64,000 bases of DNA from an uncultured Anaerofilum sp. GTDB taxonomy: Bacteria; Bacillota; Clostridia; Oscillospirales; Ruminococcaceae. The first letter of the stretch is position 1. Every line of letters begins with the position of its first letter. Below the pieces are notes generated by a model. That model saw nothing but the letters and a program-made list of their open reading frames with translations. It had not been told where the DNA came from and did no database searches. The position numbers and the translations under genes are program-made. Positions 29,522-42,674 of this stretch are shown here, in pieces. Where the stretch lies: the NCBI GenBank assembly GCA_944385935.1, contig CALWZC010000004.1, forward strand, positions 75,426 through 139,425. Reading direction: 5' to 3'.

Positions 29522-30145
29522 ATGAAAGGGCTATTGCTAAAAGATTTTTACATGACAATCAAATATGGTAAAACTTTGTTTCTGGTGGTCTTGGTTTTTT
29601 GGGCAATTTCTTGTTTTGATGATGGGGGAAGTTTTTTCCTGGTATACCCTATGATTTTAGCCGGAGTGCTTCCAATGTCCCTGATTTCTTTGGATGAACG
29701 GGAAAAATGGGTACAATACAGCGGAACATTGCCGTATACCAGAGCACAGTTAGTATCTTCAAAATATATCATAGGGCTTTTGTTGGGCGTTGGAGCATTT
29801 ATTCTTTCTATGGCGACTACTGCTGGCCGTATGTGGATGAATGGATATTTTTCTTTGTTAGAGTTTGGAACAATAGCCTCTCTTCTTCTTGTGTTGGGGT
29901 TGTTGCCGCCCACCATTTTACTGCCCTTTGTTTTCAAATTTGGAGCAGAAAAAGGCAGAATCATGTTTTATGTGGTGATTGGCTTGGCAACTGCTATTGG
30001 TACTTTATTGGCAGGGTTTGGATTTCAAATGCAGATGCAGACCAATGAATTTGCAATACTATTTGTAATGTGCACTGTGGCAGTATTGTTATATCTTGGC
30101 TCTTGGTGCCTTTCCGTTGCTTTTTATAAAAAACGAGAATTATAA
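29522..30145 (+). CDS. ABC-2-type membrane protein
   Basis: Six TM helices are predicted. AAGGAG lies 10 nt upstream, and the gene is the third member of the GntR-ABC operon. Confidence 0.6.
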   Translation: MKGLLLKDFYMTIKYGKTLFLVVLVFWAISCFDDGGSFFLVYPMILAGVLPMSLISLDEREKWVQYSGTLPYTRAQLVSSKYIIGLLLGVGAFILSMATTAGRMWMNGYFSLLEFGTIASLLLVLGLLPPTILLPFVFKFGAEKGRIMFYVVIGLATAIGTLLAGFGFQMQMQTNEFAILFVMCTVAVLLYLGSWCLSVAFYKKREL

Positions 30146-30309
30146 TGTACAAAAAGGTTTTGTTTTTTCAAAAAGAGAACAGAACCTTTTTCTTTTGGTG
30201 TATTTTTCTGACAAAATGCCCTCTTTTTGCTAAAGTTCTGTTCACAAGTGAACAGAAATATGGTAGAATTACAAAAACATCTATCCATGACAAAGGAGGG
30301 AAAGCATCA

Positions 30310-31506
30310 ATGGACTTGACACAAGAAAAAGTGGAAAATTTTGTGTGCGAGAATTGCGGCGGAACATTAAAATGGAATATAGCAAAAAAGCAATTGGAGT
30401 GTGGGTCTTGTCACACTCCCTATACTCTGCAACAGGAATCTGTTATACAAGAGCATCCCTTTGAGGAATATCATCAGCGTGAGCAGCGAACAGAAGCATT
30501 TCCTGATGAAACAGTGGTAAAGTGTAACTCTTGTGGTGCAGAAGTAGTGTTTGATAGAGATGACACGGCAAAGGTCTGCCCTATGTGTGGGGCAACTCAG
30601 ATTTTGCCACAAAAGCAGGTGCAAGGTGTTCCACCAGATGGAGTTTTGCCCTTTGAAATAGATAAACAGGCAGCCCAGCAAAAATTTAAAAAATGGGTAA
30701 GAAGTCGTTGGTTTGCCCCCAATAAGCTAAAAACCGTTTACCAAGAGGGAAAACTGAATGGGGTGTATATTCCTTTCTGGACCTTTGACACACAAGCAAA
30801 TGGCGAGTACCATGGTAGAGGTGGCAAGGAGCATGTTCGAGAGGACAAAGACGGCAACAGACGTGTGGAAGTTCGTTGGATACCTGTAAGCGGGCATGTG
30901 GGAAAATTTTTTGATGATATCCAAATTTCTGCCTCCATGGGACAGGTGAATGAGGTTGTAGATAAGGTTTTACCCTATTCTACACAAACAAAGCTACATG
31001 GATATTCTCCTATGTATCTTTCGGGATTTTCGGCAGAACGATATGCCATTCCAGCAACACAGGCCGCCGAAACCATGAAAGAGAAAGTTCGGCGAGAGTT
31101 GAAACGGATGGCAGAGGAGGATATTCGGTCAAGAGGGTTTGACCGAGCAGATGTACAACACTTGAAACTGGATTTAGAAGATACTACCTATAAGCAAGTG
31201 TTGTTACCTGCATGGTTTTCTTCCTATGCCTACGGAAAAAAGCAGTATATGTACATTATCAATGGTGAGACCGGCGAAGTAGGAGGACAGAGGCCTTATA
31301 GCATCCCCAAAATTGCAGCGGCTGTTGTGGCTGCACTTGCGTTGGTGGGGCTAATTGTTTGGGGCTCTTCCGAAAAAACAGAGGCAGCCGTTTTTGCCAC
31401 ACCAACCACAGAGGTGGTTTATCAGCAGGAACAACCTGCAAATACAATTTTGATGAAAGAAGGAAATGCAAATGGCTTGGTTTGGACAAGGAAAGGACAC
31501 AATTGA
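30310..31506 (+). CDS. zinc-ribbon-containing membrane-anchored protein (hypothetical; partner of SPFH protein)
   Basis: There are two N-terminal CxxC…CxxC ribbons (CENCGG…CGSC; CNSCGA…CPMCG) and a C-terminal TM segment (IAAAVVAALALVGLIVWG). AAGGAGGG lies upstream of ATG 30310. Confidence 0.5.
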   Translation: MDLTQEKVENFVCENCGGTLKWNIAKKQLECGSCHTPYTLQQESVIQEHPFEEYHQREQRTEAFPDETVVKCNSCGAEVVFDRDDTAKVCPMCGATQILPQKQVQGVPPDGVLPFEIDKQAAQQKFKKWVRSRWFAPNKLKTVYQEGKLNGVYIPFWTFDTQANGEYHGRGGKEHVREDKDGNRRVEVRWIPVSGHVGKFFDDIQISASMGQVNEVVDKVLPYSTQTKLHGYSPMYLSGFSAERYAIPATQAAETMKEKVRRELKRMAEEDIRSRGFDRADVQHLKLDLEDTTYKQVLLPAWFSSYAYGKKQYMYIINGETGEVGGQRPYSIPKIAAAVVAALALVGLIVWGSSEKTEAAVFATPTTEVVYQQEQPANTILMKEGNANGLVWTRKGHN

Positions 31507-32530
31507 GTGGGAAGAATTTCGAGATGATGTGCTATTTTACAAATGGCCCGGAAAGGAGATTAAAAAGGGTGCTCATCTAATTTTGCGCCCCGGACAAAAG
31601 GCAATCTTCTATGCAGATGGAGAAGTGGGAGCAGTATTTGAACGAGAGGGCAACTTTGATATTGCGTCGGAAATTGTACCCTTCTTTTCTACTCTAAAGG
31701 GATGGTTTAGCCTGCGAGGGGACAGCGGTATGCGGGCAGAGGTCTATTTTGTAAATGCAAAACAGCTTTTGCTCAACTGGGGAACCCGTCAGCGTGTAAT
31801 GATTCCTACCCCACAGGTTCCCGCAGGAATTCCAGTAGGTTGCAATGGTAATCTGGTGGTTGCTTTCCGAGATTATCAGCGGTTTATTCAAACAGTAGCT
31901 GGAGTACGCAGTACATATAGCCTAGAGGATATTTCTGAGCGAATTATGGGAGAACTAAGCCCCATTCTTTCTGAGGCAATTCTAGGCAAACAACAAATGA
32001 TAGGTGTCAATGCTTTGACAGGCCTCCAGCAAAACAGTAGAACCATTAGCAAGTTTATCTGTGAGGAATTGGACAAAGAGCTTTCTGATTTTGGTTTAGG
32101 TGTACAGGATGTCAATATTTTGGCATTCAATTACCCACCAGAAGTAGAAGCAATGGCTGCCAAAGTTGCTGGGCAAGCATTTGTAGGGGATGTAGGACGA
32201 TATGCCACCATCAGCATGGCAGATAGCTTTTCCACACCCAATGCAGCAGGTTCTGCAGCGGCTGGTGGCATGGGCTTAGCAATGGGTATGCAGATGGCAG
32301 GGCAGATGATGGGTACAATGGCAGGACAACAAAACCAGCAACCCCAACAACCCGCACAAACCTGTACAGCCTGTGGAATGAGTATACCCCAAGGGGCTAA
32401 ATTCTGCCCGGGATGTGGTGCAGCTGTGACCGCCGCACCCCAACAAACAGAAGGAGACCGCTTCTGTCCCAATTGCCGCAAAATGGTTTCTGGTAATTTC
32501 TGCCCAGATTGTGGAACAAAAACAGTATAA
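31472..32530 (+). CDS. SPFH/band-7 family protein with C-terminal zinc ribbons (COG4260/YdjI-like)
   Basis: The N-terminus reads WEEFRDDVLFYKWPGKEIKKGAHLILRPGQ (YdjI-like). It is followed by a Gly/Met-rich linker and two CxxC…CxxC ribbons at the C-terminus. Confidence 0.65.
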   Translation: MAWFGQGKDTIEWEEFRDDVLFYKWPGKEIKKGAHLILRPGQKAIFYADGEVGAVFEREGNFDIASEIVPFFSTLKGWFSLRGDSGMRAEVYFVNAKQLLLNWGTRQRVMIPTPQVPAGIPVGCNGNLVVAFRDYQRFIQTVAGVRSTYSLEDISERIMGELSPILSEAILGKQQMIGVNALTGLQQNSRTISKFICEELDKELSDFGLGVQDVNILAFNYPPEVEAMAAKVAGQAFVGDVGRYATISMADSFSTPNAAGSAAAGGMGLAMGMQMAGQMMGTMAGQQNQQPQQPAQTCTACGMSIPQGAKFCPGCGAAVTAAPQQTEGDRFCPNCRKMVSGNFCPDCGTKTV

Positions 32531-32637: not shown

Positions 32638-32786
32638 TTGAATTTTTAGGGGAAATAGCTTTTTTTATTTGCTTTTTGTTACTAAATAACAAGAAAAATG
32701 AAGCATTTTTGTAACAGAAAGTTATTTTCTGTAAAATATGCCTGATTTTATTTGCAGTATGGGAAAAAAGTTTGTTTTTTTAACAC

Positions 32787-32814: not shown

Positions 32815-32882
32815 TCTAACAGGTAATCTTTATATTAGAAAAATCTAATGAATTGTTTTGTGTTAGAAAGGGGTGCCTAAAA

Positions 32883-33206
32883 ATGAGTAATGAAACAAAT
32901 GTTTTGTTACAGTCGGTGTTGGAAATGGACCGGCAAGAACGGCTACGCACACAGGAGGCGGAGGACTACCGTGGAAAGGCCATGGCTCAGCTGGAGGACA
33001 GCCGTAAGGACATTCACCAAAAACACCAGCAGTTGGCACAGCAAAAAATAGAAGCATATACCCAACAGGAAAATGAACGTATGCAACAAACCTTGCAGAC
33101 CTTACAACAAAAAAGTGCAGCAGTAAAGCAAACACTAAACGCCACAAAGTCTGCCAAACAGGAACAATGGGTAGAAACAATTTTTGAGCGTGTTTTGGAA
33201 AGGTGA
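32883..33206 (+). CDS. V/A-type ATPase small coiled-coil subunit (G/H-like)
   Basis: The 107-aa all-helical charged protein is the first gene of the operon. GAAAGGGGTG lies upstream. Confidence 0.5.
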   Translation: MSNETNVLLQSVLEMDRQERLRTQEAEDYRGKAMAQLEDSRKDIHQKHQQLAQQKIEAYTQQENERMQQTLQTLQQKSAAVKQTLNATKSAKQEQWVETIFERVLER

Positions 33207-33214
33207 GGCGTTTT

Positions 33215-34273
33215 ATGGCAATTCCTTCCTTTGGTTCAAATGCAGTGTTGGCAAAGTGCCGTGCAATGTATGGCAAAAGCCTGACTGCTCGCAATTATAC
33301 AGAGTTGCTTGCCTGCCATACTGTGCCGGAAGTAGCAGCTTACTTGAAAACAAAAACCCATTATGCTTCTTGTTTGTCGGGGGTTACTCCTCAAGTAATT
33401 CACCGTGAACAGTTGGAAATTTTATTAAAGCGGTATCTGTTTGGACAATATGCTGCCCTTAGTCGATATGAAATTAGCTTAGGGCAGGATTTTTATTCCT
33501 ATTTTGTGGTAAAAAGCGAACTGGAAATGGTTTTAGCACAACTGCATAAAATCAATGCACAGGAACATATCCCTGTTATGGGCGCAGAGCCTGATTTTGT
33601 AAAAAAGTTTTCTCAGCTAAATGAAAGCAAAATTTCCTCTGCAAATAATCTCATGCAGTTGGCACACGCTTTGGATGGCACTCCCTATGGCAAAATTATT
33701 CATTCCTTTGTGGAAAAAACAACTTTTGATTTGCAAAGAGATGGCACATTGGAAATTGAAGCAGCCTTGATGGACTACGAGTATAGTGTCATGGAGGAGC
33801 TTTCCCAGAAACATCTAAAAGGAAAACAGTTGCAAGAAGTACTGGAAATTTTGAAACGTCAAAGCGATGTACAGGCAATTATCAATATGTTCCGTATGAA
33901 GAAGATGTTGCAATCTCCCAGTATGTATGTACGGCGCAGAGTTTCCATGCAACACACACAGCTTTCTTCTCAAAAAATCAATCAGCTTTTGGATGCGGAA
34001 AATGAGGAAGATTTTGTACGGGTGCTAAAAACTACCAGCTATGGAAAAGAACTGGCAAAGGTGGCATACGACTATATTGAAGAGGGAATGCAAAAGGTGC
34101 AGTACCATTTTCATTTAAAAAAATTCCGTTTTTCCACCAATCCCAGTGCAGTTATGCTGTGCTATTTGTTTTTGGCAGAAAATGAATTGACCAATGTTAC
34201 CCACATTATAGAGGGCATTCGATATGGAATGTCGCCAGAAGAAATTGAACGTCTTTTGGTAGGAATCCAGTGA
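33215..34273 (+). CDS. ntpC: V/A-type ATPase subunit C (d)
   Basis: The protein is about 350 aa and has an AC39-like helical architecture with a family-typical C-terminal region. The RBS is AAAGGTGAGG. Confidence 0.7.
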   Translation: MAIPSFGSNAVLAKCRAMYGKSLTARNYTELLACHTVPEVAAYLKTKTHYASCLSGVTPQVIHREQLEILLKRYLFGQYAALSRYEISLGQDFYSYFVVKSELEMVLAQLHKINAQEHIPVMGAEPDFVKKFSQLNESKISSANNLMQLAHALDGTPYGKIIHSFVEKTTFDLQRDGTLEIEAALMDYEYSVMEELSQKHLKGKQLQEVLEILKRQSDVQAIINMFRMKKMLQSPSMYVRRRVSMQHTQLSSQKINQLLDAENEEDFVRVLKTTSYGKELAKVAYDYIEEGMQKVQYHFHLKKFRFSTNPSAVMLCYLFLAENELTNVTHIIEGIRYGMSPEEIERLLVGIQ

Positions 34274-34290
34274 GGAAGGAGAGGTAAACC

Positions 34291-35253
34291 GTGTTTTTTG
34301 ATGAAAAAATACAGTTGGTATGGGTGGATGGCTCGGTGCAGCTTTTGGAAAGTTTTGTACAGAAGTGTTGCATGGGGGATGAACGTGTACATCCTACCAC
34401 AGCCAGCGATAAAATGAGCGCAGGCATGGGCTTTGCCCCCCCAGAAATAGAAAATAATTGGGCGCAGCGCATTGAGGAAATGGAACAGATGGCCCAAGGG
34501 CTGGAACTTCCAGTGGTAGAGCCTGCTTTTGAGGATGCTCGTTCTCCCAAATTGGATGGATATTTGCAGCGAGTCAAAACCGCTTTGGATGAGAAACGGA
34601 ATATTCTGAAAGATTTGGAGGCACAACAGGTTTTGTGTCAGCAGGGCATAGAGCAATTTTCCCATTTTGAAGAACTGGATGTGGATTTGAGCAAAGCTCT
34701 TGAATGTGAATACATTTCCATCCGTTTTGGAAAACTGCCCAAAGCTGGGTTTGAAACTCTGTTGAGGGAACACGGCGATGACCCTTATGTGTTCTTTATT
34801 CGGTGCAGCGAAGACAAGGATTTTTACTGGGGAATGTATTTTGCTCCCCGTGAAAAACGAGCTTTGGTAGATGGTATCTTTGCAGGCTTGTACTTTGAAC
34901 GAGTACGGTTGCCCGGTGCAGGGGGAACCCCAAAAGAAATTGTAGAAAATCTTCAACACAATGTAGAGATTTTGCGCAGCCAAATTTTGCAAGCACAAGA
35001 CCAACTACAACAGGTATGGGGAGCAGAAAAATGGCGTTGCGCTGGTATTTATGCCTCTTTTTGCAGTTTGGCCCGTGTAGCAGAGTTGTGCAAGTGTGCT
35101 GCTGTGCGGGGAGAGCATTTCTTCTATGCAGTATGGGTGGAACAAACTGCTATGGAAGCCTTTGTATCTCGCTGCGAATCTGTGGGCAAACTGCATATGG
35201 CAATGGATATGACCCTTCCCAGAAAGAAATGGAAACAGCTCCATCAGCAATAA
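34291..35253 (+). CDS. stand-alone paralogue of the cytoplasmic N-terminal domain of V-ATPase subunit I
   Basis: The 320-aa product is collinear with residues 1-~330 of the downstream subunit I (IQLVWVDGSVQLLESFVQKCC vs MKLVRVDGLLSQLDDFILRCC; YISIRFGKLP…DDPYVFFIRCSEDKDFYWGMYFAP…DGIFAGLYFER vs YINIRFGFLP…DDPYVFFVPCSQENGGYWGLYFTP…DGIFSMLYFER). It has no TM domain. A GTG start lies 9 nt after GAAGGAGAGG. Confidence 0.6.
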   Translation: MFFDEKIQLVWVDGSVQLLESFVQKCCMGDERVHPTTASDKMSAGMGFAPPEIENNWAQRIEEMEQMAQGLELPVVEPAFEDARSPKLDGYLQRVKTALDEKRNILKDLEAQQVLCQQGIEQFSHFEELDVDLSKALECEYISIRFGKLPKAGFETLLREHGDDPYVFFIRCSEDKDFYWGMYFAPREKRALVDGIFAGLYFERVRLPGAGGTPKEIVENLQHNVEILRSQILQAQDQLQQVWGAEKWRCAGIYASFCSLARVAELCKCAAVRGEHFFYAVWVEQTAMEAFVSRCESVGKLHMAMDMTLPRKKWKQLHQQ

Positions 35254-35294
35254 CGGCGGCTTATACCGCATGAGAAAGGACGATGAACTGATTC

Positions 35295-37226
35295 GTGGCC
35301 ATTGAAAAAATGAAGCTCGTCCGAGTGGATGGGCTGCTCAGTCAGTTGGATGATTTTATCCTGCGATGTTGCATTAATGGTGATTTTCAACCTGAACCTG
35401 CTATCCAGTATATGTCTGCTTCCAGTAAAAACATGTCCTTGGTGGAGGAAAACCCCTATCCACCTATGGTGCAGGCAGTAGAAGAATTGTTTGCTCTGGC
35501 AGAATATACCCCCCAAGAGGATAATAAAACCGAAAAAGAACGTACCATAGACCCCAAAGCCTTGGAAGCAGTGCAAACTGTAAAAGAAGAGTTGAAAGTT
35601 TTACAGCAACAGCAAAAAACACAACAGCGAGAACTGGCACAGCTTCAAGAGCGCAGCAACCAATATTCCCACTTTGAGTCGTTGGAAACTCCCCTAGAGG
35701 AACTGGAGGCGACAAAGTATATCAATATCCGTTTTGGATTTTTGCCGGGAGAGAGCTATCAAAAAATGCAGACCAGTTATGCAGATGACCCTTATGTATT
35801 TTTTGTGCCTTGCAGTCAGGAAAATGGCGGATATTGGGGATTATACTTTACCCCTCATCGGGTAGCAGATGAGATTGATGGCATTTTTTCCATGCTGTAC
35901 TTTGAGAGAATTTCTTTGGAAAACGATACTGGTACAGTAAAAGAAATTATGCAAAAGCTGCAAACACAAATCGACCAGTTGCAGCAAGAACTGGACAAAA
36001 CCAATGCAGCCATACAAAAGTTGTGGGAAGAAAATAAAGAATATTGCATTGGTGTGTACAGCCAGTTGAAATGGTTAGACCAAGTGTTTGAACTGCGGCA
36101 TTATGCAGCTTATCGGGATAACTATTTCTTCTATGTGGGATGGATTCCTGAAAGAGCTGTGCCAGAGTTTAGCAAGCAGGTAAAATCTCTGCGCAATATG
36201 AAAATTACCGTTACCGACCCCAGCAAACAGGACAAAATTGCTCCGCCGGTAAAGTTAAGGAACCTTTTACCCTTCCGGCCCTTTGAGATGTTTGTTGGAA
36301 TGTATGGCCTTCCCAGTTATGGAGAAATGGACATCACCGAATTTGTTGCCATTACATTTACTTTATTGTTTGGCATTATGTTTGGTGATATGGGACAGGG
36401 AGCTGTGCTTGCCATTGGTGCCTTTATCCTGTATAAGTGGAAGGGTATTGCTTTGGCGAAACTGGTTATTCCTTGTGGAATTTCTTCCATGTTCTTTGGG
36501 TTCATTTTCGGTTCGGTATTTGGATTTGAACATTTGCTAGACCCGGTATACCACGCCTTAGGCTGGAAAGGAAAGCCACTGGAAGTAATGGAATCCATCA
36601 ACACAGTGCTATTGGTTGCCATTGGTATTGGTGTTTCCTTGGTAATTGCTTCTATGTTGCTAAATGTTGTCGCTTCTGCACGAAAAGGACATTGGGGAGA
36701 GGCTATCTTCTCCAACAATGGTTTGGTAGGATTGGCAGTGTATATTTCTGGTGTAAACCTAGTAAGTGGATTTATGGGCGGCCCCAGCCCCATCCCTGCG
36801 CAAGTGGGACAATTCCTCATTGGTGCTGGTCTGGTTTTGCTGTTCTTTAAAGAGGTGCTGGTAGGTAAATTTGACGGGCACCCCGACTGGAAACCAGAAA
36901 GCTGGAGCGACTATGCTATGCAGAACTTGTTTGAACTACTGGAATATGTGCTTTCTTATTTTTCAAACACTGTTTCCTTCTTGCGTGTAGGTGCTTTCGT
37001 AATTGTCCATGCTGCTATGATGATGGTGGTATTTAGTCTGGCAGGAGACCCTGCAAACCCTGTGGTTGTGGTATTGGGCAATGCTTTGGTAATCTGTTTG
37101 GAAGGTTTGCTGTCTGGTATTCAGGGATTGCGTTTGGAATTCTATGAAATGTTTAGCCGCTGCTATGAGGGCGGTGGACGTCCTTTCCGGGGAGTTCGTC
37201 TTGCACCGGAAAAACAAAAGCACTAA
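35295..37226 (+). CDS. ntpI: V/A-type ATPase subunit I (a)
   Basis: The 643-aa product has an N-terminal cytoplasmic domain followed by about eight TM helices. A GTG start gives MAIEKMKLVRV. Confidence 0.85.
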   Translation: MAIEKMKLVRVDGLLSQLDDFILRCCINGDFQPEPAIQYMSASSKNMSLVEENPYPPMVQAVEELFALAEYTPQEDNKTEKERTIDPKALEAVQTVKEELKVLQQQQKTQQRELAQLQERSNQYSHFESLETPLEELEATKYINIRFGFLPGESYQKMQTSYADDPYVFFVPCSQENGGYWGLYFTPHRVADEIDGIFSMLYFERISLENDTGTVKEIMQKLQTQIDQLQQELDKTNAAIQKLWEENKEYCIGVYSQLKWLDQVFELRHYAAYRDNYFFYVGWIPERAVPEFSKQVKSLRNMKITVTDPSKQDKIAPPVKLRNLLPFRPFEMFVGMYGLPSYGEMDITEFVAITFTLLFGIMFGDMGQGAVLAIGAFILYKWKGIALAKLVIPCGISSMFFGFIFGSVFGFEHLLDPVYHALGWKGKPLEVMESINTVLLVAIGIGVSLVIASMLLNVVASARKGHWGEAIFSNNGLVGLAVYISGVNLVSGFMGGPSPIPAQVGQFLIGAGLVLLFFKEVLVGKFDGHPDWKPESWSDYAMQNLFELLEYVLSYFSNTVSFLRVGAFVIVHAAMMMVVFSLAGDPANPVVVVLGNALVICLEGLLSGIQGLRLEFYEMFSRCYEGGGRPFRGVRLAPEKQKH

Positions 37227-37320
37227 GTGCTACTAAATGTTTGCCATGTTTCGCACATTGTGCGATATGGAAAGTGAAAATCACTTTTATAAAATCTTTT
37301 ATCATTTGGAGGAAGAATCT

Positions 37321-37773
37321 ATGAATACTCTGTTTCAACTGTTGTTTGCACTGGCTCCCGTAGCCATTTTGATGGGAGCAACCGCTCTGATTGCTCGCAA
37401 GGTAAGCGCAGGCAAAATTAGTGTGAAGAAGTCCTTTGGTATGAACTTGGCTGTCTTTGGTGTGATTATGGTAGTAGGCTGCATGATGGCTATGACTGTA
37501 TTTGCTGCTGATGGTGCCGCTGCAATGACCGCCGCAGAGCGTGCAGCAAGCAACCAGAGCATGGGTCTGGGTCTGTTGGCTGCTGCATTGGTAACCGGTT
37601 TGGCAGGTATCGGCGGTGGTATCGCTGTTGCCGCAGGTGCTCCTGCTGCTATCGCAGCTGCAAGCGAAGACCCCAAGAGCTTTGGTAAGTCCTTGATTTT
37701 CGTTGCTTTGGGCGAGTCTATTGCATTGTATGGTGTTGTTATCTCCATCTTGATTCTGAACAAGTTGGTATAA
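37321..37773 (+). CDS. ntpK: V/A-type ATPase proteolipid subunit K (c)
   Basis: The protein has four TM helices and is Ala/Gly-rich. The conserved carboxylate lies in the last helix (ALGESIALYG). The RBS is GGAGGAAG. Confidence 0.8.
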   Translation: MNTLFQLLFALAPVAILMGATALIARKVSAGKISVKKSFGMNLAVFGVIMVVGCMMAMTVFAADGAAAMTAAERAASNQSMGLGLLAAALVTGLAGIGGGIAVAAGAPAAIAAASEDPKSFGKSLIFVALGESIALYGVVISILILNKLV

Positions 37774-37795
37774 GCCGGAAGGAAGGCGAAATCCA

Positions 37796-38104
37796 ATGCG
37801 TTTTTATCTAATCAGTGATAATGTAGATACATTGGTGGGCATGCGTTTGGCAGGCATTGAGGGAGTAGTAGCCCACGAAGATGCCGAGGTACAGCAAGCT
37901 CTGGATGAGGTGCTGAAAGCCGATGATATCGGCATGATTTTGGTTACTGAAAAGTTGATGCGCCAATTTGGTGAGCATTTTGACCAAGTGCGCCAAACCA
38001 TGACAAAGCCCCTAATTGTGGAAATTCCCGACCGGCATGGTGCCGTAAACGGAAAAGACCGCATTACCAAATATGTGCGTGATGCCATTGGCGTCAAGAT
38101 TTGA
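37796..38104 (+). CDS. V/A-type ATPase subunit F
   Basis: The 102-aa product has a Vma7-like pattern (DTLVGMRLAGIEGVV…IGMILVTEKL). Confidence 0.75.
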   Translation: MRFYLISDNVDTLVGMRLAGIEGVVAHEDAEVQQALDEVLKADDIGMILVTEKLMRQFGEHFDQVRQTMTKPLIVEIPDRHGAVNGKDRITKYVRDAIGVKI

Positions 38105-38114
38105 GGTGTAAAGG

Positions 38115-38708
38115 ATGATTCAGCAACAAGAGCGTGCAGAAAAGTTTTTTCGGGCAATTCGCAGAGATGCTGAACGGCGGCGTAAGCAGATTATCAGCCA
38201 AATTGATGAATATATCGCCGCAGAAACCGAAAAAATAGAGCAGGCGGAATTGCAATCTGCCAATGAACGGGTACAATATGAAACCCAACGTATACAATCC
38301 CAAACCAACAGCCAGTTGGCAAAGGAAACCACCGAAATCAGTGCAGAGTTGGCTGCCTACCGTAGCGCAATTACCAAAGAGGTATTTGAACAAGTGGCAC
38401 AGAAGCTGGCAGTATTTGTGAAAAGCCAACAGTATCAGCAATGGTTGTCTGATGGATTGGGCCAAATGGAAAAACTTCTTGGTGCGGGGATGACAGTGTA
38501 TGCTGCCCCTGCTCAGGTGGAACAGGTAGAAAAAGCTGTTGCAATGGCAAAGGTAGACTGTACAGTCAAAGCAGACGAAAACATCCATTTGGGTGGTGTT
38601 CGTGCAGAAAAAGGCAGCAAAAAGGTGGATGACACACTGGACAGCCGCCTGAAAAGTCAAGAGGATTGGTTCTACCAGAACTCTGGTCTTTCCATTGCAA
38701 TTCAGTGA
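38115..38708 (+). CDS. V/A-type ATPase subunit E
   Basis: The 197-aa product has a long N-terminal helix and a globular C-terminus. Its position before A is consistent with an E-like stator subunit. Confidence 0.6.
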   Translation: MIQQQERAEKFFRAIRRDAERRRKQIISQIDEYIAAETEKIEQAELQSANERVQYETQRIQSQTNSQLAKETTEISAELAAYRSAITKEVFEQVAQKLAVFVKSQQYQQWLSDGLGQMEKLLGAGMTVYAAPAQVEQVEKAVAMAKVDCTVKADENIHLGGVRAEKGSKKVDDTLDSRLKSQEDWFYQNSGLSIAIQ

Positions 38709-38723
38709 AACGAGGTGTAAGCG

Positions 38724-40502
38724 GTGAGTGAACCGATTCGGATTCATGGCATCAATGGCCCAGTTGTTACCATTCAGGGAAAAACTGGCCTTGGCATGAT
38801 GGAAATGGTGTATGTAGGCGACCAGCGACTGGTGGGTGAAGTCATCGGGCTGGATAGCAATAAAACCACCATTCAGGTATATGAGGAAACAGGCGGCCTT
38901 CGTCCCGGTCAGCCAGTATTCTCTACTGGTGGCCCCATGTGTGTAACATTGGGCCCCGGCATTTTAAAAAATATTTACGATGGTATTCAGCGGCCGCTGC
39001 CTGCCATTGAGAAACAATCAGGGGCATTTATTGGCAAGGGTGCCGATGTTCCTGCTCTAGACCCCGATGCAGTATGGGATGTAACTTTGACTGTAAAAGA
39101 GGGGGATACTCTCTCTGCTGGTCAAGTGTACGCCACTTGTCCCGAAACTCCCATCATTCTACATAAATGTATGTTGGCTCCGGGCAAAAGTGGAACCATT
39201 GTATGGGTTGCTCCAAACGGAAGCTACCGAGTCAATGATGTTGTGGCAAAATTGCAACGGCAGGACGGAACCATTGAGGAGTTGACCTTGTGCCAAAAAT
39301 GGCCCATCCGTACTCCTCGCCCAGTAACCAACCGCATGGGTGCAACCCGCCCCTTGATTACTGGTCAGCGTGTAATTGATACCATGTTCCCCATTGCAAA
39401 GGGCGGTGCAGCCGCCATCCCTGGTGGATTTGGTACCGGTAAAACTATGACCCAGCACCAGTTGGCAAAATGGTGTGACGCAGATATTATTATTTACGTG
39501 GGCTGTGGCGAACGTGGTAATGAGATGACACAGGCTTTGACCGAGTTCGGTGAGATTACCGACCCCAAGTCTGGCCGTCCCCTAACAGATAGAACCGTGT
39601 TGATTGCCAATACTTCCAATATGCCTGTGGCTGCCCGTGAGGCTTCCATCTACACAGGCGTTACCTTGGCAGAATATTACCGTGATATGGGCTATCATAC
39701 TGCTATGATGGCAGACTCTACCAGCCGTTGGGCGGAGGCATTGCGTGAAATTAGCGGACGTTTGGAAGAAATGCCTGCGGATGAAGGCTTCCCCGCATAT
39801 CTGCCCAGCCGTTTGGCAGAGTTTTACGAGCGTGCAGGTTATGTGTCTACCTTGAACGGGCAAGAAGGTTCTGTCACCTTGATTGGTGCAGTTAGCCCAC
39901 AGGGTTCCGACTTTTCCGAGCCTGTTACCCAGAATACAAAGCGGTTTACCCGTTGTTTCTGGGCATTGGATAAGGCATTGGCTTATGCTCGTCACTATCC
40001 GGCCATCAACTGGAACGACAGCTACTCAGAGTATACCAGCGATTTGGCACATTGGTACTATGACCATGTAGGCCCTGACTTTATGGCTTACCGTGAGGAA
40101 TTGGCAGGAATTTTGTTGCAGGAAAACAGCTTGATGGAGATTGTAAAGCTGATTGGTTCCGATGTATTGCCCGATGACCAAAAACTGGTTATTGAGATTG
40201 CTCGTGTGGTTCGGGTAGGATTCTTGCAGCAAAATGCTTTCCACAAGGATGACACCTTTGTACCTATGGAAAAGCAATTAAAAATGATGCAGGTAATTTT
40301 GCACCTGTATCACAAATGCCAAGATATTGTGGCACGACAGGTGCCCCTTTCCCAGATTATTAAATTGGGATTGTTTGATAAAGTGATTAAGATTAAATAT
40401 GATGTACCCAATGACCAACTAGATTTGCTGGATGGGTATATCACAGAAATCAATCAGGCGTTGGGGCAGTTCCTCAACACCGATTACAGAAAGGGGGAAT
40501 AA
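38724..40502 (+). CDS. ntpA: V/A-type ATPase catalytic subunit A
   Basis: The P-loop is GGFGTGKT, and the non-homologous region and overall A-subunit collinearity are present. The start is GTG. Confidence 0.95.
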
Positions 40503-40505
40503 GGG

Positions 40506-41882
40506 ATGATTCTGGAGCATATTGGTCTTTCTCAGATTAACGGTTCTCTGGTAGTTCTAGATGATGTGGAAGATGCCAGCTATGATGAAATGGTGGAAAT
40601 GCACCTAGACGACGGCAGCCACCGTGTAGGCCGTGTGGTTATGATTGAAGGTAGTCGTATTGTTGTTCAGGTGTTTGAGGGAACCCGTGGTCTTTCTTTG
40701 GATAATACCCGCACCGTACTTACCGGCCATCCCATGGAAATTGACCTTTCCCCGGAAATTTTGGGCCGTACCTTTGATGGATTGGGTCGCCCCATTGATG
40801 GCATGGGAGCCATCTTCCCACAGGTTCGCCGGGATGTAAATGGTTCGCCCATCAACCCCGTTTCCCGTGTCTATCCCCGAAACTACATTCGTACTGGTAT
40901 TTCCAGTATTGACTGCTTAGCCACCTTGATTCGTGGTCAAAAACTGCCCATTTTCTCTGGTTCCGGTATGAAACACAACGAATTGGCAGTACAGATTGTA
41001 CAGCAGGCAAATGTATCGGATGGAAGTGAATTTGCCATCGTATTTGCGGCAATGGGTGTAAAAAACGATGTAGCGGAGTACTTTAAGTCCAGTTTTGAAA
41101 AAGCCAATGTTATGGACAGGGTTGTTATGCTGCTAAATTTGGCAAATGACCCCATCATTGAACGTATTTTGACCCCCCGTTGTGCATTGACTATTGCAGA
41201 GTATCTTGCCTTTGATTTGGGCATGAATATTCTGGTGGTTATGACCGATATGAGTAGTTATTGTGAGGCGTTGCGTGAGTTCTCCTCCTCCAAAGGAGAG
41301 ATTCCAGGAAGAAAAGGCTTCCCCGGCTACCTCTACTCCGACCTTGCCAGCTTGTATGAACGTGCCGGCATTGTGCAGGGCAAAAAGGGTTCTGTGACTC
41401 AGATTCCCATTTTGACTATGCCTGGTGATGATATTACTCACCCTATTCCTGACTTGACCGGATATATCACCGAAGGCCAGATTGTTTTGGATAGAAGTCT
41501 GGATGCTACTGGTGTATATCCTCCTGTTAGTGTGTTGCCTAGCTTGTCCCGTCTGATGAAGGACGGCATTGGCGCAGGCTATACCCGCGATGACCATTCG
41601 GCATTGTCTAACCAGTTGTTTGCATTGTATGCCCGTGTGCAGGATGCAAAGGCATTGGCCAGTGTTATTGGTGAAGATGAGCTTAGTCCGGCTGACAAGC
41701 GAGTATTGCAATTTGGTAAAGCCTTTGAACAGCGTTTTGTAGGGCAAGGCTTTACCAACCGAACCATGGAAGAAACCCTAGATTTGGGCTGGGAGCTGTT
41801 GGGTATGCTTGACCGCAGCGAGCTTGACCGTGTGGATGATGCTATCCTAGACCAGCACTACAAGCCCTATCAGGCGGAATAA
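40506..41882 (+). CDS. ntpB: V/A-type ATPase subunit B
   Basis: The 458-aa product shows B-subunit collinearity (…[14 protein letters not shown]…). A canonical P-loop is absent, as expected for B. Confidence 0.95.
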
Positions 41883-41915
41883 TGCCTTTAGGCTGGGGCA
41901 AGGAGGGAAAGCAAC

Positions 41916-42542
41916 ATGGCACAACAGGTATTTCCTACAAAAAGCAATCTAATGGCAACCAAAAAAAGCCTTGCTCTGTCCAAACAGGGCTATGAACTCA
42001 TGGACCGCAAACGAAACATTTTGGTGCGGGAAATGATGCAGTTGATTGACCGTGCTGCTGAGATTCAAACAAAAATCGAGGTAGCATATTCCAGTGCATA
42101 CCGCGCTTTGCAGCGAGCCAATGTAACACTGGGAATGGTTGGCAAATTTGCCAACAGTGTGCCCCAAGAGGAAGGCTTACAACTGGAGTTTCGCAGTGTA
42201 ATGGGTGTGGAATTGCCCATCGTAAAGCTGGAAAGCCAGCAGCCAACACAGTTTTACTATGGATTGTACTCCACCAACAGCCAGCTTGATGATGTATATG
42301 AGCAGTTTGAGGAAGTAAAGCGGTTGACTGTGGAATTGGCAGAAGTAGAGGGAAGTGTTTATCGTCTTGCGGTAGCCATCAAAAAGACCCAAAAACGAGC
42401 CAATGCCTTAAATAACATTATGATTCCGAAATTCACTGCCACTATCAAGTTTATTACAGAGGCTTTGGAGGAAAAGGAGAGAGAGGAATTTTCTCGCCTA
42501 AAGGTTATTAAAAGCCAAAAGGACAAGGCCGAACAACAGTAA
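41916..42542 (+). CDS. ntpD: V/A-type ATPase subunit D
   Basis: The 208-aa coiled-coil central stalk protein is the last gene of the operon. Confidence 0.9.
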   Translation: MAQQVFPTKSNLMATKKSLALSKQGYELMDRKRNILVREMMQLIDRAAEIQTKIEVAYSSAYRALQRANVTLGMVGKFANSVPQEEGLQLEFRSVMGVELPIVKLESQQPTQFYYGLYSTNSQLDDVYEQFEEVKRLTVELAEVEGSVYRLAVAIKKTQKRANALNNIMIPKFTATIKFITEALEEKEREEFSRLKVIKSQKDKAEQQ

Positions 42543-42674
42543 TTTGTTGCCATAAAAACAGCACCTTATTTTTTGCCACTGTAGCAAAGAATAGGGTGTT
42601 TTTTGTATTGCAATTACCTGTGGAAAAAATAGGGTGTGTATGATACAATAGACAAAAATCAAAGGAGGACAAGA

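Follow-up and report, generated by a model that had tools for sequence, protein, structure and literature searches.

What is the tenth gene of a bacterial V/A-type ATPase operon, and what could its product do in the enzyme? The V/A-type ATPases of bacteria and archaea are described as having nine subunits, with a collar that consists of subunit a alone and holds two peripheral stalks. A compact operon for such an enzyme lies at positions 32853-42542 (forward strand) of a 64,000-nucleotide stretch of DNA from an uncultured Anaerofilum sp. (assembly GCA_944385935.1, contig CALWZC010000004.1, positions 75,426 to 139,425), which is referred to here as the window. This operon contains ten genes, the tenth beyond the canonical nine being the gene of a 320-residue protein, here called X, encoded directly upstream of subunit I (the equivalent of subunit a). 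In a first-pass annotation of the window, X had been described as a diverged, stand-alone paralogue of the soluble N-terminal half of subunit I, with possible roles ranging from an assembly factor, a regulatory cap or a decoy to a replacement for a missing stator component. It was found that X is a true extra, membrane-free copy of the subunit I arm, and that it is an addition to the complete nine-subunit set and not a substitute for one of its members. As for its role, an accessory collar subunit of the stator was judged to have about an even chance of being the right answer.

A membrane-free copy of the subunit I arm

Pairwise alignment bore out the collinearity of the two neighbouring proteins; residues 5-315 of X correspond to residues 4-314 of subunit I, with 33% identity over 314 residues, 53% positives and 6 gaps (BLASTP, E 4e-50 for this single comparison). 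No match was obtained between X and the C-terminal half of subunit I, and X terminates at residue 320, which coincides exactly with the boundary between the arm and the membrane domain. That the membrane domain is lacking, as had been claimed, was also seen in the hydropathy analysis, since X has no hydrophobic segment: its maximum Kyte-Doolittle mean over 19 residues is 1.09 and none of its windows exceeds 1.6, whereas 52 windows of the C-terminal half of subunit I do.

A split gene, a read-through or a frameshift joining X to subunit I was considered and rejected. The reading frames of the two genes differ, with a gap of 41 nucleotides between them, and they are separate in all relatives that carry X. 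Above all, X cannot be the detached front part of a split gene because the subunit I downstream of it retains its own complete N-terminal domain, together with the PF01496 membrane domain. The view of X as a diverged paralogue, and not as an assembly artefact or a split gene, was thus upheld: it is a separate open reading frame (ORF) of about 320 residues (313-322), followed by a complete subunit I and kept under purifying selection (see below).

Family models hardly recognize the protein. No Pfam family was found for X at E ≤ 0.1, hence neither PF01496 nor the subunit C family PF03223, and the NCBIfam subunit I models (PRK05771) matched it with an E value of 8e-10 and 37.5 bits, the cut-off being 766. 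When the PDB sequences were searched with a profile built from the X family, nothing relevant was retrieved. Because neither Pfam nor this profile search was informative, a structural model was needed to assign the fold. AlphaFold2, supplied with an alignment of 87 sequences comprising the X family, other proteins consisting of the N-terminal domain only (N-only proteins) and full-length I subunits, gave a model with a predicted local distance difference test score (pLDDT) of 94.4 and a predicted template modelling score of 0.81. In this model, a proximal lobe is built from strands and helices of residues 6-67 together with 271-318; it is followed by a long helix (88-124), a distal α/β lobe (133-199) and a second long helix (214-267). 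On comparing the model with the PDB by Foldseek, the top match was subunit a of the Thermus V/A-ATPase (6r0z_N, E 1.5e-12, template modelling (TM) score 0.65), and the next ones were mammalian and yeast a subunits and the crystal structure of the Meiothermus subunit I N-terminal domain (3rrk). Chains of the eukaryotic subunit C appeared further down the list, with E values of 1e-8 to 1e-6 (7uzf_G 1.3e-8; 1u7l 6.6e-8) and TM scores of about 0.3. The predicted fold is that of a complete a/I arm, with two α/β lobes and a long antiparallel coiled coil, and the modelled likeness to eukaryotic subunit C is remote. Lacking the membrane domain, X is a paralogue of the arm and not itself a subunit I.

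The operon around the extra gene

The genes follow each other in the order G/H-type, C (AC39/d), X, I, K, F, E, A, B, D. The features of the region, all on the forward strand, are as follows.

32709-32737, +: promoter-like site TTGTAA-17-TAAAAT (consensus scan; a pattern match only, 9 of 12 positions)
32853-33206, +: putative G/H-type peripheral-stalk subunit, first gene, 117-residue coiled-coil protein (assigned from position, coiled coil and a weak PDB hint)
33203-34273, +: subunit C (AC39, d-type), 356 residues (PF01992, E 1.8e-56)
34274-34290, +: 17-nucleotide spacer between C and X with the ribosome-binding site AGGAGAGG (read from the sequence)
34291-35253, +: X, stand-alone paralogue of the soluble N-terminal arm of subunit I (a_sol), 320 residues, 36.8 kDa, isoelectric point 5.2 (homology to I, predicted fold)
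35295-37226, +: full-length subunit I (a), 643 residues, with its own N-terminal arm (about residues 1-318) and membrane domain (PF01496, E 9.6e-24; NCBIfam subunit I models, E 1e-58)
37321-37773, +: subunit K (c, proteolipid), about 150 residues (PF00137; the mechanical ORF begins at 37237, but orthologues have 150-151 residues)
37796-38104, +: subunit F, 102 residues (PF01990, E 1.1e-24)
38115-38708, +: subunit E, peripheral stalk, 197 residues (PF01991, E 9.2e-9)
38724-40502, +: catalytic subunit A, 592 residues (orthologues carry ATP-synt_ab domains; 93-94% identity to Anaerofilum genomes)
40506-41882, +: subunit B, 458 residues (domains of orthologues; 95-96% identity to Anaerofilum genomes)
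41916-42542, +: subunit D, central stalk, 208 residues (PF01813, E 8.8e-56)
42560-42610 (or 42560-42600), +: terminator-like hairpin of 17 pairs with a T-run, 18 nucleotides past the D stop codon

The first-pass annotation had pointed to the single E-like gene and the single short G/H-like gene as a sign that a stator component might be missing. This reading was abandoned, as the G/H-like, C(d), I, K, F, E, A, B and D genes are all present and the relatives without X share the same gene set. One E gene and one G gene per operon is the normal state. For the G/H-type protein, no family was found in searches of Pfam and NCBIfam; the sole hint from the PDB sequences was ATP synthase subunit b (E 0.009), and an ORF of 103-108 residues fills the same first slot in all related operons.

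The C start codon and the preceding G/H-type stop codon overlap by 4 nucleotides. X starts with GTG, and its ribosome-binding site lies 7 nucleotides upstream of this codon; an alternative ATG start of subunit I was noted at 35310. The mid-operon place of X and its strong ribosome-binding site suggest a roughly stoichiometric, constitutive co-expression with the rest of the operon. The hairpin behind D is the strongest terminator-like site on the forward strand between 32300 and 43000, and the same scan revealed none of comparable strength between G and D. The number of promoter-like sites found in the region by the consensus scan is near the shuffle expectation. Two further forward-strand ORFs (453 and 354 residues) occupy positions 30145-32530, a short way upstream of the operon; several CxxC zinc-ribbon-like motifs are found in each of them, and the second also has a low-complexity stretch rich in Q, G and M.

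Conservation of X and recurrence of extra arms

In a scan of GTDB with one genome per species, X was detected in 11 species, namely 2 of Anaerofilum, 2 of uncultured "Gemmiger", 6 of Candidatus Allofournierella and 1 represented by an Oscillospiraceae metagenome-assembled genome (MAG). It was also found on several metagenome contigs, in independent assemblies from many samples. A word-indexed search gave 10 clusters of X proteins with 49-100% identity, all 319-321 residues long and none with a Pfam domain; a single name came with the sources, "hypothetical protein" (Candidatus Fournierella merdipullorum). The outcome of the survey of related operons proposed earlier was as follows: in all 11 species, X lies between C and I, directly upstream of a subunit I of 642-664 residues, and the two are always separate and never fused. 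The same scan yielded 69 other loci, nearly all from Oscillospirales, with a single subunit I and no X. The order C-I-K-F-E-A-B-D was found in the 19 of these that were checked, and X is the only extra gene since these operons share the remaining order. A G-like ORF was detected upstream of C in 5 of the 19, a low figure explained by the divergence of G, which is too fast for the sequence query from the window.

Two irregular loci were met among the relatives. In the Clostridiales bacterium MAG HRGM_Genome_3390 (locus L023, 6604-8546), one of the 69 loci without X, subunit I is broken into overlapping ORFs of 322 residues (arm) and 344 residues (membrane domain); here the gene really has been split or frameshifted, and the result looks unlike X plus I. 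On an Allofournierella-like contig (locus L003, 11079-12803), the K-F segment is repeated as K, a 72-residue F fragment, a 55-residue ORF, K and F, the result of a local tandem duplication or else of an error in the assembly.

The amino-acid identities of the window's proteins to those of the two main groups of carriers are given below, those of A and B being from full-length matches only. The values for A place the source of the window with Anaerofilum-like Oscillospiraceae.

Window and Anaerofilum relatives: X 73-76%, I N-terminal domain 72-74%, C 69-73%, E 65-70%, G 66-71%, A 93-94%, B 95-96%
Window and Allofournierella: X 46-50%, I N-terminal domain 45-48%, C 45-46%, E 43-46%, G 30-33%, A 78-79%, B 85%

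For pairs with unsaturated synonymous divergence (dS), the ratio of nonsynonymous to synonymous substitution rates (dN/dS) was 0.05-0.18 for X and 0.05-0.19 for the subunit I N-terminal domain. X evolves at the pace of the stator subunits, under purifying selection equal to that on the N-terminal domain of subunit I. In bootstrapped neighbour-joining trees, in which deeper nodes were not resolved, X and the N-terminal domains of subunit I from the same operons each formed a clade with 100% bootstrap support and showed a mirrored split into Anaerofilum and Allofournierella. The duplication can therefore be dated to before the separation of these genera. It is held with high confidence that the X gene is real and functional.

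The alignment of the 10 clusters, which reach down to 49% identity, contains 106 invariant columns, and the N-terminal MFFD was invariant in all ten. The region most like a genuine subunit I is the distal lobe (125-213), with 48% identity to the window's own subunit I; it is 45% identical to single-copy I subunits, compared with 47% for the lobe of the neighbouring subunit I itself. The family-wide motifs RFGxLP, WGxYFxP, DGIF, FER and GTP have all been kept. The proximal lobe of X is more remote from the family, with 19-26% identity where the arm of subunit I has 25-36%, and is well conserved among X proteins (47-50%). Similarly, the linker and the second long helix are conserved at 40% and 47% within X, as opposed to 17% and 35% within the arm of subunit I. 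The C-terminal tail (35241-35253) has a conserved basic-aromatic motif, P-x-(K/R)-(K/R)-W-(K/R), in which W314 is invariant, at the place of the PPxKLxN motif that leads into the membrane in subunit I; it may be a remnant of the latter or an element for docking to the membrane or a partner. X also has 10 cysteines, compared with 4 in the arm of subunit I. Seven of them are invariant in the family (C26, C27, C116, C139, C172, C258 and C269) and 4 of these seven are absent from subunit I; they may form a metal or redox site.

A profile of X was also used to search 1.84 billion representative proteins. Among the 735 matches are I subunits of full length, many N-only proteins (about 306-338 residues) and subunits I of 750-950 residues with two or three matches to the N-terminal domain. 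Stand-alone N-only genes of 315-338 residues were found between C and I in other Bacillota lineages. The same ten-gene order as in the window was seen at four loci (L091, L093, L094 and L095), of which L093 is a 110-kb contig of a Clostridiaceae MAG and L094 a 141-kb contig of a Bacillota MAG, and two short contigs (L088 and L092) show an N-only gene followed by the start of the I gene. MAGs of Izemoplasmatales and Tenericutes contributed more N-only proteins, which bear the name "hypothetical protein" where the contig is longer; a few on very short contigs are annotated as partial subunits I.

The identity of the N-only protein to its own subunit I ranges from 33% in the window, through 37-38%, 42%, 53% and 59%, to 60% in L093. 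With 98-99% bootstrap support, the N-only copies of L088, L091 and L093 each group with the subunit I of their own locus. Comparisons between lineages usually gave N-only proteins no higher scores among themselves than against foreign I subunits; a mild exception is L091, the N-only copy of which scores slightly higher with X of the window than the L091 subunit I does. The grouping and the cross-lineage scores rule out a single ancient family of all N-only proteins. Behind the pattern lies either gene conversion between the neighbouring copies or a duplication of the 5' half of the I gene that happened more than once.

A second form of the extra arm is fused to subunit I. Twenty-three clusters from Clostridiales MAGs, including P0043, are subunits I of 935-947 residues with two tandem arms before the membrane domain, encoded in a G-C-[I]-K-F-E-A-B-D operon, in the same slot. 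Both arms were modelled with the two-lobe pattern (pLDDT about 80-90; the membrane part was modelled poorly), the second being devoid of the N-terminal strand of the proximal lobe. The arms of P0043 and P0089 show 18-23% identity to X and to the subunit I N-terminal domain of the window. They cluster together with 92% bootstrap support, and the double-arm subunit I is thus the product of an independent duplication. The first-pass annotation had stated that fusion of the two ORFs in closely related strains would mean a split gene. No such fusion was found in the 11 carrier species; fused double-arm forms do exist, only in a distant clade and with subunit I complete there. Such forms argue for physical association of the extra arm with subunit I rather than for a split gene. 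These loci show that the addition of an extra arm has happened repeatedly, in trans as a separate protein and in cis by fusion.

Subunits I enlarged in other ways were noted as well. In variants of about 750-840 residues (P0014, P0017, P0021, P0055, P0062, P0080, P0081, P0092, P0097, P0134 and P0139), the X profile matches two or three overlapping stretches of the N-terminal domain. P0014 (L090, 150-2534), which lies in an otherwise normal I-K-F-E-A operon fragment, has the matches 5-158, 96-231 and 159-303 and then the membrane domain, a pattern equivalent to an extra module of distal lobe and helix inside the arm. Three other subunits I (P0066, P0084 and P0136) have 786-812 residues. In P0066 and P0084, a distal-lobe-like stretch (about 123-210 of the X profile, 37-44 bits) is found inside the membrane domain, inserted at a point between positions 202 and 213 of the C-terminal half of the window's subunit I; the membrane-domain match of P0136 has a comparable gap at the same place, in which no lobe match was detected.

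Possible roles of X and known systems

The reading to which about an even chance is given here is that X adds a tenth, separately encoded subunit to the stator ("collar") of this bacterial V/A-type ATPase, having arisen when the 5' half of the I gene was duplicated. The E-G stalks of Thermus, a proximal and a distal one, are bound by the two lobes of a_sol (PMC7367684). By this reading, the distal lobe of X would hold the N-terminal end of an E-G peripheral stalk, and the proximal lobe and coiled coil, diverged from subunit I and conserved within the X family, would dock X on the arm of subunit I, on subunit d or on a neighbouring stalk. A collar enlarged in this way would give extra support to the two usual stalks, or it would hold a third stalk at the B subunit that is otherwise free. 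Beside the arm of subunit a in eukaryotes, this task falls to subunit C, a soluble protein of two lobes (PMC6131620). The points counted in favour are the position in the operon, the stator-like evolution, the retained distal lobe, the cis-fused counterpart and the recurrence in several lineages. Other points weigh against it. All the sequences come from MAGs and metagenomes. The single-copy operons of close relatives evidently work without X, and X is evidently not essential to the basic machine. In isolated Vo of Thermus, both the proximal and the distal lobe of the arm clamp subunit d and thereby mechanically inhibit proton conductance; since the same lobe contacts d there, conservation of the distal lobe cannot separate a structural from a braking role (PMC7367684). 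Stand-alone copies of different lineages share no X-specific features, and a single common mechanism is therefore an assumption.

The clamp on d leads directly to the strongest rival, in which X is a regulator, a brake or an assembly factor that binds transiently to subunit d or to free E-G/V1 and is not a permanent subunit. Being a free arm, it could block rotation or proton leakage through unassembled Vo, chaperone the stalks, or compete with the arm of subunit I and so tune assembly. The clamped state of Thermus Vo would provide the precedent (PMC7367684); X keeps the distal lobe, its gene directly follows that of C(d), and the operons of relatives without X are otherwise identical, as would be expected of an accessory modulator. 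The probable constitutive, near-stoichiometric co-expression of X speaks for something more lasting, the covalently fused double-arm subunit I makes a permanent structural role simpler than a reversible one, and regulated dissociation has not been reported for bacterial V/A-ATPases (PMC7367684). This explanation, which is motivated by the analogy with Thermus, was considered rather unlikely, albeit one to be taken seriously.

A division of labour is a further option, in which the arm of subunit I has kept one stalk and X has taken the other, the total still being two. The distal-lobe motifs are kept in both copies and the proximal lobe of X has diverged as expected of divided work, but the arm of subunit I in operons with X keeps all family motifs in both lobes, and its identity to single-copy I subunits (36% in the N-terminal part of the proximal lobe, 47% in the distal lobe) is as expected, with no sign of a lost site. 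Such subfunctionalisation was regarded as improbable. There is hardly any room left for X as a functionless by-product, whether left over from a tandem duplication, due to a split gene or created by the assembly. It is true that a tandem duplication of the 5' half of a gene naturally gives a truncated copy just upstream, that the arrangement arose or was homogenised repeatedly, and that a frameshift-split subunit I does occur at the related locus L023. Nevertheless, the length of 319-321 residues, the 106 invariant columns and the low dN/dS ratios are not those of a remnant; X has been retained across genera with A subunits only 78% identical, and it is present in independent assemblies of many samples, with a complete subunit I downstream.

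In full-text literature searches, neither a stand-alone paralogue of the arm nor a subunit I with two arms was found described for prokaryotes. Taken together, the same selection as on stator parts, the recurrence and the mirror image provided by the fused double arm suggest that abundant gut anaerobes have a stator architecture not described before. A more far-reaching idea, drawn by analogy and thought unlikely, is that some Bacillota V/A-ATPases have a eukaryote-like enlarged collar, in which the third B subunit would carry a third E-G stalk, held by a free or cis-fused second arm. X would in that case be analogous in function to eukaryotic subunit C, having evolved independently and on repeated occasions, and it would be a living model of how subunit C could have come from a duplicated N-terminal arm of subunit a (a_NT). 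The locus would offer a simple, testable system for the evolution of stalk number and collar complexity and for the question of whether a duplicated a_NT can become a C-like subunit. In V-ATPase operons, a whole set of proteins so far called "hypothetical" can be given an annotation.

Among known systems, the closest is the a/I arm itself (Thermus thermophilus 6R0Z/6QUM chain N; Meiothermus ruber 3RRK), with which X shares the bent, two-lobed coiled-coil fold and the distal-lobe motifs. X differs in being a separate polypeptide without membrane domain, proton channel or membrane tether; its proximal lobe, linker and second long helix carry a conserved sequence of their own, and it falls below the thresholds of Pfam PF01496 and the NCBIfam subunit I models. 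The double-arm subunit I resembles it in that an extra arm has been added to an otherwise standard operon at the position of X, the difference being that this arm is fused in cis, whereas X of the window is a free protein. The eukaryotic a-subunit isoforms (Vph1/Stv1, a1-a4), in which divergence of the N-terminal arm changes regulation (PMC10313074), are likewise paralogues of the same subunit; they are complete alternative subunits of different complexes, whereas X is an arm only, encoded together with a complete subunit I. The three-stalk collar of a_NT, C and H has been treated as eukaryotic, and subunit C has been said to have no prokaryotic homologue (PMC6131620). Eukaryotic subunit C (Vma5p, 1U7L), soluble and separately encoded like X, has two lobes and a coiled-coil neck, as X has in its predicted model, and it anchors the E-G stalks in the collar beside a_NT, its head binding EG3 and its foot EG2 (PMC6131620).
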